Of a DNA stretch of 3,488 bases, positions 1,075 through 1,130 are shown piece by piece. Source of the DNA: a virus. Taxonomy: Duplodnaviria > Heunggongvirae > Uroviricota > Caudoviricetes. The stretch lies in the IMG/VR virus record IMGVR_UViG_2695420687_000014. One strand, written 5' to 3'. The first letter of the stretch is position 1; every line of letters starts with the position of its first letter. The notes beneath the pieces were generated by a model, which saw nothing but the letters and a program-made list of their open reading frames with translations, was not told the origin of the DNA and searched no databases. Position numbers and translations under genes: made by a program.

Positions 1075-1080
1075 GATAAT

Positions 1081-1101
1081 AAAAAACCCGCACGCGGCGG
1101 G
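1081..1101 (-). terminator. Candidate intrinsic terminator or RNA-stabilising hairpin between tail completion and major tail genes
   Basis: On the minus-strand transcript: CCCGC-CGCGU-GCGGG (5-bp GC stem, 5-nt loop; plus coordinates 1101 to 1087) followed directly by UUUUUU (1086 to 1081) and AUUAUC. An alternative outer stem AAAACCC/GGGUUUU (1083-1089 with 1106-1112) is possible. Lies in the only sizeable intergenic gap (66 nt). The stem is short, so strength is uncertain. Confidence 0.4.
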
Positions 1102-1130
1102 GTATGGGTTTTGTAGAAAAAAAGAAAAAG

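Follow-up and report, generated by a model that had tools for sequence, protein, structure and literature searches.

A conserved intrinsic-terminator-type hairpin between the tail completion and major tail genes of a Stx-type phage late operon

The stretch of E. coli prophage DNA analysed here (3,488 nt, hereafter the window) carries, between its tail completion gene (gp17 family) and its major tail (tube) gene, a GC hairpin that runs directly into a U-tract and an SD sequence, and this element is probably an intrinsic-terminator-type signal placed at the head-neck/tail-tube boundary inside a Q-antiterminated late operon. Because the energetics of the single sequence are marginal, the case beyond chance rests on the relatives of the window and not on the window sequence, and the comparison of these relatives shows, as far as sequence comparison goes, that the hairpin is under selection. 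Every real gene of the window lies on the minus strand, and together they cover the section of a siphophage late operon devoted to head-to-tail joining and the tail (Table 1). The gap between gp17 and the major tail gene (66 nt, 1130-1065) is the sole gap in the window exceeding 10 nt, the other neighbours being separated by 5 nt or 9 nt or overlapping, which bears out an earlier sequence-only reading that had called it the only real gap of the module. Stx1a-, Stx2c- and some Stx2a-converting phages match the window DNA at 96-98% identity, and the segment around the gap is found in 1245 of 5426 complete E. coli genomes, with at most eight copies per genome. In the copy from O157:H7 86-24 (L001) the genes form a single co-directional block, which opens with holin and lysozyme, continues with terminase, capsid, neck and tail, and closes with the fibre genes. 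The late block of Stx-type lambdoid phages is transcribed from PR' and depends on antitermination by Q (PMC7547250). At the upstream end of the window, the minus-strand ORF 3488-2598 contains a 162-nt tandem repeat (2.5 copies, 84% matches, 3064-3468) that encodes 54-aa protein repeats (DGRDYDPDVL...VNDAV...IPVPADGKSITPDDVRPMLEQMV), with a weak CBM_5_12 match in the region after the repeat. The full repeat-bearing gene is given in RefSeq as a frameshifted 'phage portal protein' in O157 86-24, and may represent a portal or decoration fusion whose C-terminal extension carries the repeats.

Table 1. Positions of genes and sequence elements in the window and in the O157:H7 86-24 late operon (L001), and stem arms at the same junction in named relatives.
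Feature	Source	Position	Strand	Sequence or basis
Repeat-containing 'portal' gene, C-terminal part	window	3488-2598	minus	
gp6-like connector	window	2601-2275	minus	
Head closure protein	window	2265-1915	minus	
HK97 gp10-family protein	window	1918-1472	minus	
Tail completion / tail terminator gene, gp17 family	window	1131..1475	minus	Pfam Tail_completion_gp17, E = 1.1e-7; RefSeq 'tail completion protein gp17'
gp17 stop codon	window	1133-1131	minus	UGA
Pyrimidine tract directly after the gp17 stop codon	window	1130-1117	minus	CUUUUUCUUUUUUU
Pyrimidine tract as a feature	window	1115..1130	minus	CUUUUUCUUUUUUUCU; sequence
AAAACCC, able to pair with GGGUUUU (1089-1083)	window	1106..1112	minus	minimum-free-energy structures of the full-length RNA
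Terminator-type hairpin, 5 G-C pairs, 5-nt loop	window	1087..1101	minus	CCCGC-CGCGU-GCGGG; scans and folding
Hairpin 5' arm	window	1101-1097	minus	CCCGC
Hairpin loop	window	1096-1092	minus	CGCGU
Hairpin 3' arm	window	1091-1087	minus	GCGGG
U-tract and AU-rich spacer (putative terminator tail; also putative unstructured leader directly 5' of the SD)	window	1075..1086	minus	UUUUUUAUUAUC
U-tract	window	1086-1081	minus	U6
AU-rich spacer	window	1080-1075	minus	AUUAUC
RBS of the major tail gene	window	1062..1074	minus	AGGAGG 1074-1069, 4-nt spacer CAGA, AUG 1064-1062
Major tail (tube) protein gene, C-terminal Ig-like domain	window	348..1064	minus	Pfam Phage_TTP_11, Phage_tail_2, Ig_2; RefSeq 'major tail subunit'
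Tail assembly chaperone	window	342-1	minus	
Hairpin-U-tract before major capsid gene	L001	18473-18456	sense	
Hairpin-U-tract before major tail gene	L001	12203-12189	sense	
Hairpin-U-tract before tape-measure gene	L001	10755-10740	sense	
Strong bidirectional hairpin before J gene	L001	4899-4872		
Hairpin-U-tract before lom	L001	1276-1257	sense	
Hairpin-U-tract before fibre gene	L001	524-495	sense	
Stem arms (5' / 3')	Phytobacter			ACCCGGC / GCCGGGU
Stem arms (5' / 3')	Leclercia			GCCGCC / GGCGGC
Stem arms (5' / 3')	mEp234			AACCCGCC / GGCGGGUU
Stem arms (5' / 3')	Klebsiella phage			ACCGCC / GGCGGU
Stem arms (5' / 3')	Bordetella phage			ACCCGCC / GGCGGGU
Stem arms (5' / 3')	Burkholderia phage			GGCCCGC / GCGGGCC

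The pyrimidine tract, the CCCGC/GCGGG hairpin, the U6-AUUAUC stretch and an AGGAGG 4 nt before the ATG were all recovered on the minus strand where the sequence-only reading had placed them. The stem is GC-rich and has the length (at least about 5 bp) and the loop (3-8 nt) of an intrinsic terminator, while U6 begins immediately 3' of G1087, inside the 0-2 nt from the stem base within which a terminator U-tract starts. As with intrinsic terminators, the element is on the sense strand, non-coding and conserved in position with its complementarity kept. The T-runs at 1117-1129 and 1081-1086 vary among near-identical copies (the sites compared were those of the window, L001 12150-12250, L010, L013, L042 and L060), so that the gap measures 65, 66 or 68 nt and the tail is U6 or U7, and they behave as slippage-prone sites. 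A G-to-T change in the L010 copy has resulted in a shorter stem and a longer U-run, and the pyrimidine tract, which differs in length among near-identical copies, is missing in more distant relatives.

Two further hairpins are found at the edges of the gap. One, AGGUCAC-GGU-GUGACUU (1144-1118, minus strand), is weaker and terminator-like, lies over the gp17 stop codon, is followed by UUUCUUUUUU and would form a tandem pair with the main hairpin; as a candidate second terminator it does not pass the stricter criteria, and the closely related L019 variant has it disrupted. The other, GGAGGCAG / AUG / UCUGCUUU (1054-1072, minus strand, -9.1 kcal/mol, z -1.7), is a local structure in which the start codon of the major tail gene occupies the 3-nt loop and the 3' part of the SD is paired with codons 2-4. 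The window type has this SD-sequestering hairpin and mEp234 has part of it, but its conservation does not extend to more distant relatives. A site scan of the minus strand gave no sigma-70-like promoter in or near the gap. The only promoter-like site of the window, TTAACA-16-TATCAT (10/12 matches, 2208-2235, plus strand), is antisense to the head closure gene and is probably a chance occurrence, shuffled sequences averaging 2.0 such sites.

The terminator-like anatomy was recognised by two scans of different stringency. A simple terminator scan picks out the hairpin, with 5 terminator-like sites in the window against 2.5 expected, and a stricter scan, which asked for a perfect stem of 5 bp or more with at least three G-C pairs, an energy no weaker than -6 kcal/mol and a U-tract that begins at the stem, leaves it as the sole site of this type on the window's coding strand. 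The folding energy, for which the sequence-only reading had set a cut-off of -8 kcal/mol, gives a divided answer. The 15-nt hairpin alone falls narrowly short at -7.5 kcal/mol (z -2.2), and the region 1075-1115 does pass with -9.9 kcal/mol (z -1.5; 16 of 200 shuffles fold as well), but by way of a different structure, the outer helix AAAACCC/GGGUUUU, which consumes the U-tract and rivals the canonical hairpin in the full-length RNA. The gap as a whole folds no better than its shuffles (z -0.33), and in a 231-nt context the canonical stem has an equilibrium probability of about 7%, a different helix being favoured. The fold of the nascent RNA ending at the stem is exactly the CCCGC/GCGGG hairpin, which is available while the U-tract is transcribed, and a d'Aubenton-Carafa-type score is positive at about +20. 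The window copy is also the weakest of its family, at -7.5 kcal/mol compared with -9.5 to -18 in relatives: a sister variant has its stem lengthened to 7 bp (-10.1 kcal/mol), and stems of 7-9 bp (-12 to -16 kcal/mol) are found in other enterobacterial types. With a stem of 5 bp, shorter than in typical efficient terminators, the window copy is probably a weak terminator of low efficiency.

In order to place the hairpin in an evolutionary context, the junction between the tail completion/terminator gene and the major tail gene was compared in relatives whose major tail proteins are 30-99% identical to that of the window. These comprise Phytobacter and Leclercia prophages, mEp234, a Klebsiella, a Bordetella and a Burkholderia phage, and 160 viral contigs, the contigs being scanned by alignment; a single-protein scan of the genome collection gave three loci only. 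A GC hairpin with a U-tract, its stem ending 17-26 nt before the ATG, is present in 60 of 88 non-redundant upstream regions, from phages of E. coli, Klebsiella, Phytobacter, Leclercia, Bordetella type and Burkholderia type. The background of the motif on the same strand of the same loci is 0.012 per 38-nt scanning window, and the enrichment at the junction is about 57-fold. Junctions with a gap of at least 30 nt carry the motif in 57 of 66 cases, most of the nine exceptions being visibly decayed or imperfect, whereas it is absent from all 17 junctions at which the genes abut or overlap. As motif-bearing gaps are moreover mostly 55-66 nt long, the gap essentially exists to hold the hairpin. The motif is also strand-specific, the bin from -100 to -1 containing it in sense orientation at 46 of 68 loci and in antisense orientation at none; the histogram has secondary peaks following short tail genes, at about +1.4 to +1.8 kb, and also 1.5-1.8 kb on the upstream side. 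In one clade the genes abut and the hairpin is lacking, which indicates that the element is dispensable; this clade nevertheless has a strong TAGGAGG SD, and a high-scoring copy of the motif about 1.7 kb downstream. In one contig (L084, about 2400-2500) the hairpin region is tandemly duplicated upstream of the major tail gene, with TTAATGATTTTACCCACCCGCCGCTGGCGGG occurring twice.

The sequence of the stem varies widely while its pairing is retained. In all the named phages the GC hairpin is situated in the gap and is followed at once by a U-rich run and then the SD, although the stems are different (Table 1), and further contigs have CCACC/GGUGG or GCUGC/GCAGC stems, several with UUCG-type tetraloops. 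Across the relatives the stem core is variously CCCGC, CCCGGC, GCCGCC, CCGCC, CCACC, GCUGC or GGCCCGC, always with complementarity kept, and a U-rich spacer of 11-12 nt recurs. In a covariance model of the junction, to which 76 matches were aligned, changes on both sides are seen in six of the eight stem pairs. The cells with such changes number 58 compared to 11.7 in shuffles, none of 500 shuffles reaching 58, and paired cells make up 82.8%, a share that drops to 54% or less once the partners are slid; the alignment behind these figures is fitted to the model and takes in some other junctions too.

The hairpin recurs along the late operon. A scan of the sense strand of the full L001 late operon located it before the major capsid, major tail, tape-measure, lom and fibre genes, together with a strong bidirectional hairpin before the J gene (Table 1), and only two more matches to the motif lie inside coding sequence. 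The gap between the terminase large subunit and capsid genes (L001 18432-18484, minus) contains a twin of the tail element, GAACCGC-UGCG-GCGGUUU (-10.2 kcal/mol), which continues into a U-tract, AUUUUC, AGGAGG and the start codon, and a 19-nt block, TTTTTTATTWTCAGGAGGC, is common to the capsid and major tail junctions of one prophage type. A model of hairpin, U-tract, SD and ATG retrieves additional copies, exclusively sense-strand ones, ahead of tape-measure and other genes, and in mEp234 and the Klebsiella phage the motif follows the capsid gene and precedes both the tail gene and the tape measure. The tail-junction hairpin therefore belongs to a series of punctuation marks placed where modules meet. 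Besides the bidirectional hairpin of 12-13 bp (4871-4900), the 343-nt gap before the J gene (L001 4767-5110) has, on the strand antisense to the late operon, a near-consensus promoter-like TTCACA-16-TATAAT (4973-5000) and a terminator-like hairpin (5080-5096). The equivalent gap in Sakai Sp15 (2902691-2902930) contains the Hfq-bound sRNA EcOnc22 (2902714-2902774, plus strand), whose homologues EcOnc23 and EcOnc24 are in Sp14 and Sp11.

Terminators at such junctions are already part of the annotation of related phages. In the HK97 record (NC_002167) a 'putative terminator' occupies 6692-6719, where the tail terminator gene (gp11) gives way to the major tail subunit gene (gp12), and in that of mEp234 (NC_019715) the orthologous site, 6643-6670, is entered as a 'rho-independent terminator'. 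Both records annotate terminators at most late-operon junctions, those of HK97 including sites after the portal, capsid and tail genes and before the tape measure. The sequence-only reading had regarded a terminator upstream of the most abundant tail protein as counter-intuitive; the layout ahead of the capsid, tape-measure, lom and fibre genes and the HK97 and mEp234 annotations, which include the tail junction, remove the oddity. Pfam gene order puts the window hairpin at the same location, between tail completion and major tail genes of an HK97-like module, and the likeness extends to a syntenic series of connector, head closure, HK97 gp10, tail completion and major tail genes (the mEp234 major tail protein is 67% identical to that of the window), to a common CCCGCC-type stem core and to a GC hairpin and U-tract with the SD and ATG following about 20 nt later. 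The HK97/mEp234 hairpin is, however, far stronger (9-bp stem, -16.1 kcal/mol, compared to 5 bp and -7.5 kcal/mol), both phages have a terminator directly after the tail gene where the window has a 5-nt gap and none, and the pyrimidine tract after the stop codon is an extra of the window. Searches of the accessible literature returned no direct experimental work on HK97-type late-operon terminators. On these comparisons of sequence and annotation, the hairpin is real but ordinary, a type of element that records of HK97-like phages already list at this junction.

More distant analogies concern either the shape of the element or its logic. The 3:4 hairpin of the trp leader (RF00513) likewise consists of a GC-rich stem with a U-run at once, and the Rfam stem GCCCGC...GCGGGC-U8 aligns to CCCGC...GCGGG-U6 of the window; the window lacks, however, both a leader peptide and an alternative antiterminator pairing, and its score of 17.6 bits is far under the gathering score of 41. 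The tR' terminators of lambdoid late promoters are overridden by Q (PMC7547250), but tR' is located just after the promoter, whereas the element of the window is deep inside the operon. According to two accounts of processive antitermination, several terminators within an operon tie expression to polymerase modified at a single upstream site and block premature expression (PMC8191782, PMC11658703). Multi-terminator operons under lambda N and Q, and the terminator-insulators of conjugative elements such as Tn916, follow the same logic as the element of the window, the analogy being one of logic only.

Among the three roles that the sequence-only reading had offered for the hairpin, a terminator read through under late antitermination fits best, in view of its terminator anatomy, the Q-expressed late operon around it and its conservation in distant relatives. 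According to this scenario, CCCGC/GCGGG would form in the nascent minus-strand transcript while U6 is in the RNA-DNA hybrid, and a polymerase that had not been modified by Q at the late promoter, whether derived from spurious internal starts, from read-in transcription or from transcription in the lysogenic state, would be released there, at least partly. Expression of the tail genes would in this way stay dependent on Q, and during lytic growth the Q-modified polymerase would pass the hairpin. In the resulting read-through mRNA the hairpin would persist as an intercistronic structure, and its U-rich tail next to AGGAGG could serve as an unstructured leader supporting strong independent initiation of the major tail gene, which would be uncoupled, unlike the overlapping, translationally coupled neck genes. 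Termination and its efficiency, read-through under Q, and effects on mRNA stability or translation are inferred. The terminator-type reading is preferred because the features that are conserved, namely a GC-rich stem base, U's at the stem and sense orientation, are those a terminator needs, and they are not required of a mere structural spacer. Later roles of the hairpin as a 3' exonuclease barrier for the upstream segment, or of the U-rich tail beside AGGAGG as an unstructured leader or standby site, are compatible with it. The 3' stabiliser that the sequence-only reading had offered is a plausible role.

The features next to the start codon can also be read the other way round, with termination as incidental: the hairpin would fold away a GC-rich spacer and the 11-12-nt U-rich stretch would act as a standby or S1-binding platform beside a strong SD, so that the abundant tail tube protein is made at a high rate, independently of the weakly expressed, coupled neck genes. 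A tight distance from stem to ATG and a strong SD are no less consistent with a role in translation. The distance of 17-26 nt is constant in 60 relatives, a near-identical TTTTTTATTWTCAGGAGGC precedes the major capsid gene as well as the major tail gene of a single prophage, and the combined hairpin, U-tract, SD and ATG model retrieves its copies before tape-measure and other genes on the sense strand only; a standby site would also help a window SD that is partly sequestered with its AUG in a loop. Genome compaction, however, could simply account for the constant spacing, and the sequestering hairpin is not a conserved one. Low-copy genes moreover have the motif before them as well (in HK97/mEp234 the I gene and the chaperone gene that comes after the tail gene, in the O157 prophage lom), the gapless clade does without it and retains a strong SD, destruction of the stem in silico leaves the predicted accessibility of the SD unchanged, and in all copies the U's start at the stem base, a terminator-specific trait that a standby site does not need. 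An initiation module as the main function is considered unlikely. Punctuation at the level of the mRNA is a doubtful explanation as well. Here the hairpin would be a barrier to 3'-to-5' exonucleases, the late transcript decaying after endonucleolytic cuts in segments of differing stability, and at this junction it would protect the head-neck segment ending at gp17. Hairpins at the L001 boundaries before capsid, tail tube, tape measure, J, lom and fibre genes, and after the capsid and tail genes in HK97 and mEp234, agree with such a role, as does the behaviour of Q-modified polymerase, which in lambda is expected to disregard terminators; the AU-rich and pyrimidine-rich flanks resemble, by inference, single-stranded sites of the RNase E type. 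A 5-bp stem of -7.5 kcal/mol would nevertheless make a poor exonuclease barrier, the messages shielded would be those of the low-abundance neck genes and not that of the tail tube, whose gene has no hairpin after it, and a stability element has no need of an invariable U-tract right at the stem. The processing site suggested by the sequence-only reading obtained no specific support. An RNase III site needs an extended double-stranded stem of roughly 20 bp, and the 5-9 bp present in all copies are far too short for a site of the T7 intercistronic type.

A small Hfq-binding RNA resembling isrK, made from the gp17 message's 3' end and stopping at the terminator, is very improbable. Hfq usually binds a module made up of a U-rich stretch, a terminator hairpin and a U-tail (PMC4104026), and such an arrangement is present here along with a weak full-length Rfam match to isrK (1184-1081, minus strand, 18.2 bits, E = 0.075 in a 301-nt search). 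This score is far under the gathering score of 50 (RF01394), however, and the aligned identity is almost wholly that of the terminator hairpin and U-tail, for which reason the Trp-leader model scores about equally; a search with all Rfam families at permissive thresholds gave only these two sub-threshold matches, both from the terminator hairpin. There is no promoter-like site nearby on the minus strand, and the list of EHEC Hfq-bound sRNAs (EcOnc) places no entry at the junction, a comparison in which the module's Sakai copies were not located and only Sp15, the Stx1 prophage, which has a different, lambda-like tail module, was read through. The Pas sRNAs PasA, PasC and PasD map near Q and the lysis genes and not at the junction. 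A chance hairpin without function is just as hard to credit: it would be consistent with the weak single-sequence statistics, that is, the z scores of the whole gap and of 1075-1115 and the 5 sites against 2.5 expected, yet it is already contradicted by the comparative data, namely the enrichment at the junction, the 57 of 66 gapped junctions, the strand specificity and the compensatory changes in the stem. Two further readings of the gap were set aside. A fusion of gp17 to the tail protein by stop-codon read-through was considered as 22 stop-free in-frame codons follow UGA-C in the window, and is ruled out by near-identical copies with 65- and 68-nt gaps, in which the T-runs vary and the frame is not conserved. 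A mosaic joint was likewise rejected, the sole shortened match in E. coli genomes (H70) being due to an IS66 insertion and not to a module swap.

A broader and decidedly speculative proposal would combine several of these roles. The hairpin, U-tract and SD might constitute a reusable dual cassette for the junctions of HK97-like late operons, acting both as a Q-dependent checkpoint of transcription and as a standby site or enhancer for uncoupled high translation, and the near-identical capsid and tail-tube copies might additionally offer short homology patches for the exchange of head and tail modules between phages.

The comparative regularity is clean and testable, in that the gap holds the hairpin, the spacing to the ATG is fixed and the arrangement recurs before capsid, tail tube and tape-measure genes; it extends the existing HK97 annotation and opens no new question. 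Term-seq exists for O157 Sakai, from a sample that is not described as induced (GEO GSE143631, PMC7547250). About one in four complete E. coli genomes carry the module, as do Stx1a/Stx2c phages, and recognition of its terminator-type punctuation would aid the reading of RNA-seq and Term-seq profiles from induced lysogens, the prediction of which tail genes may leak in the lysogen, and the design of expression constructs from these modules.
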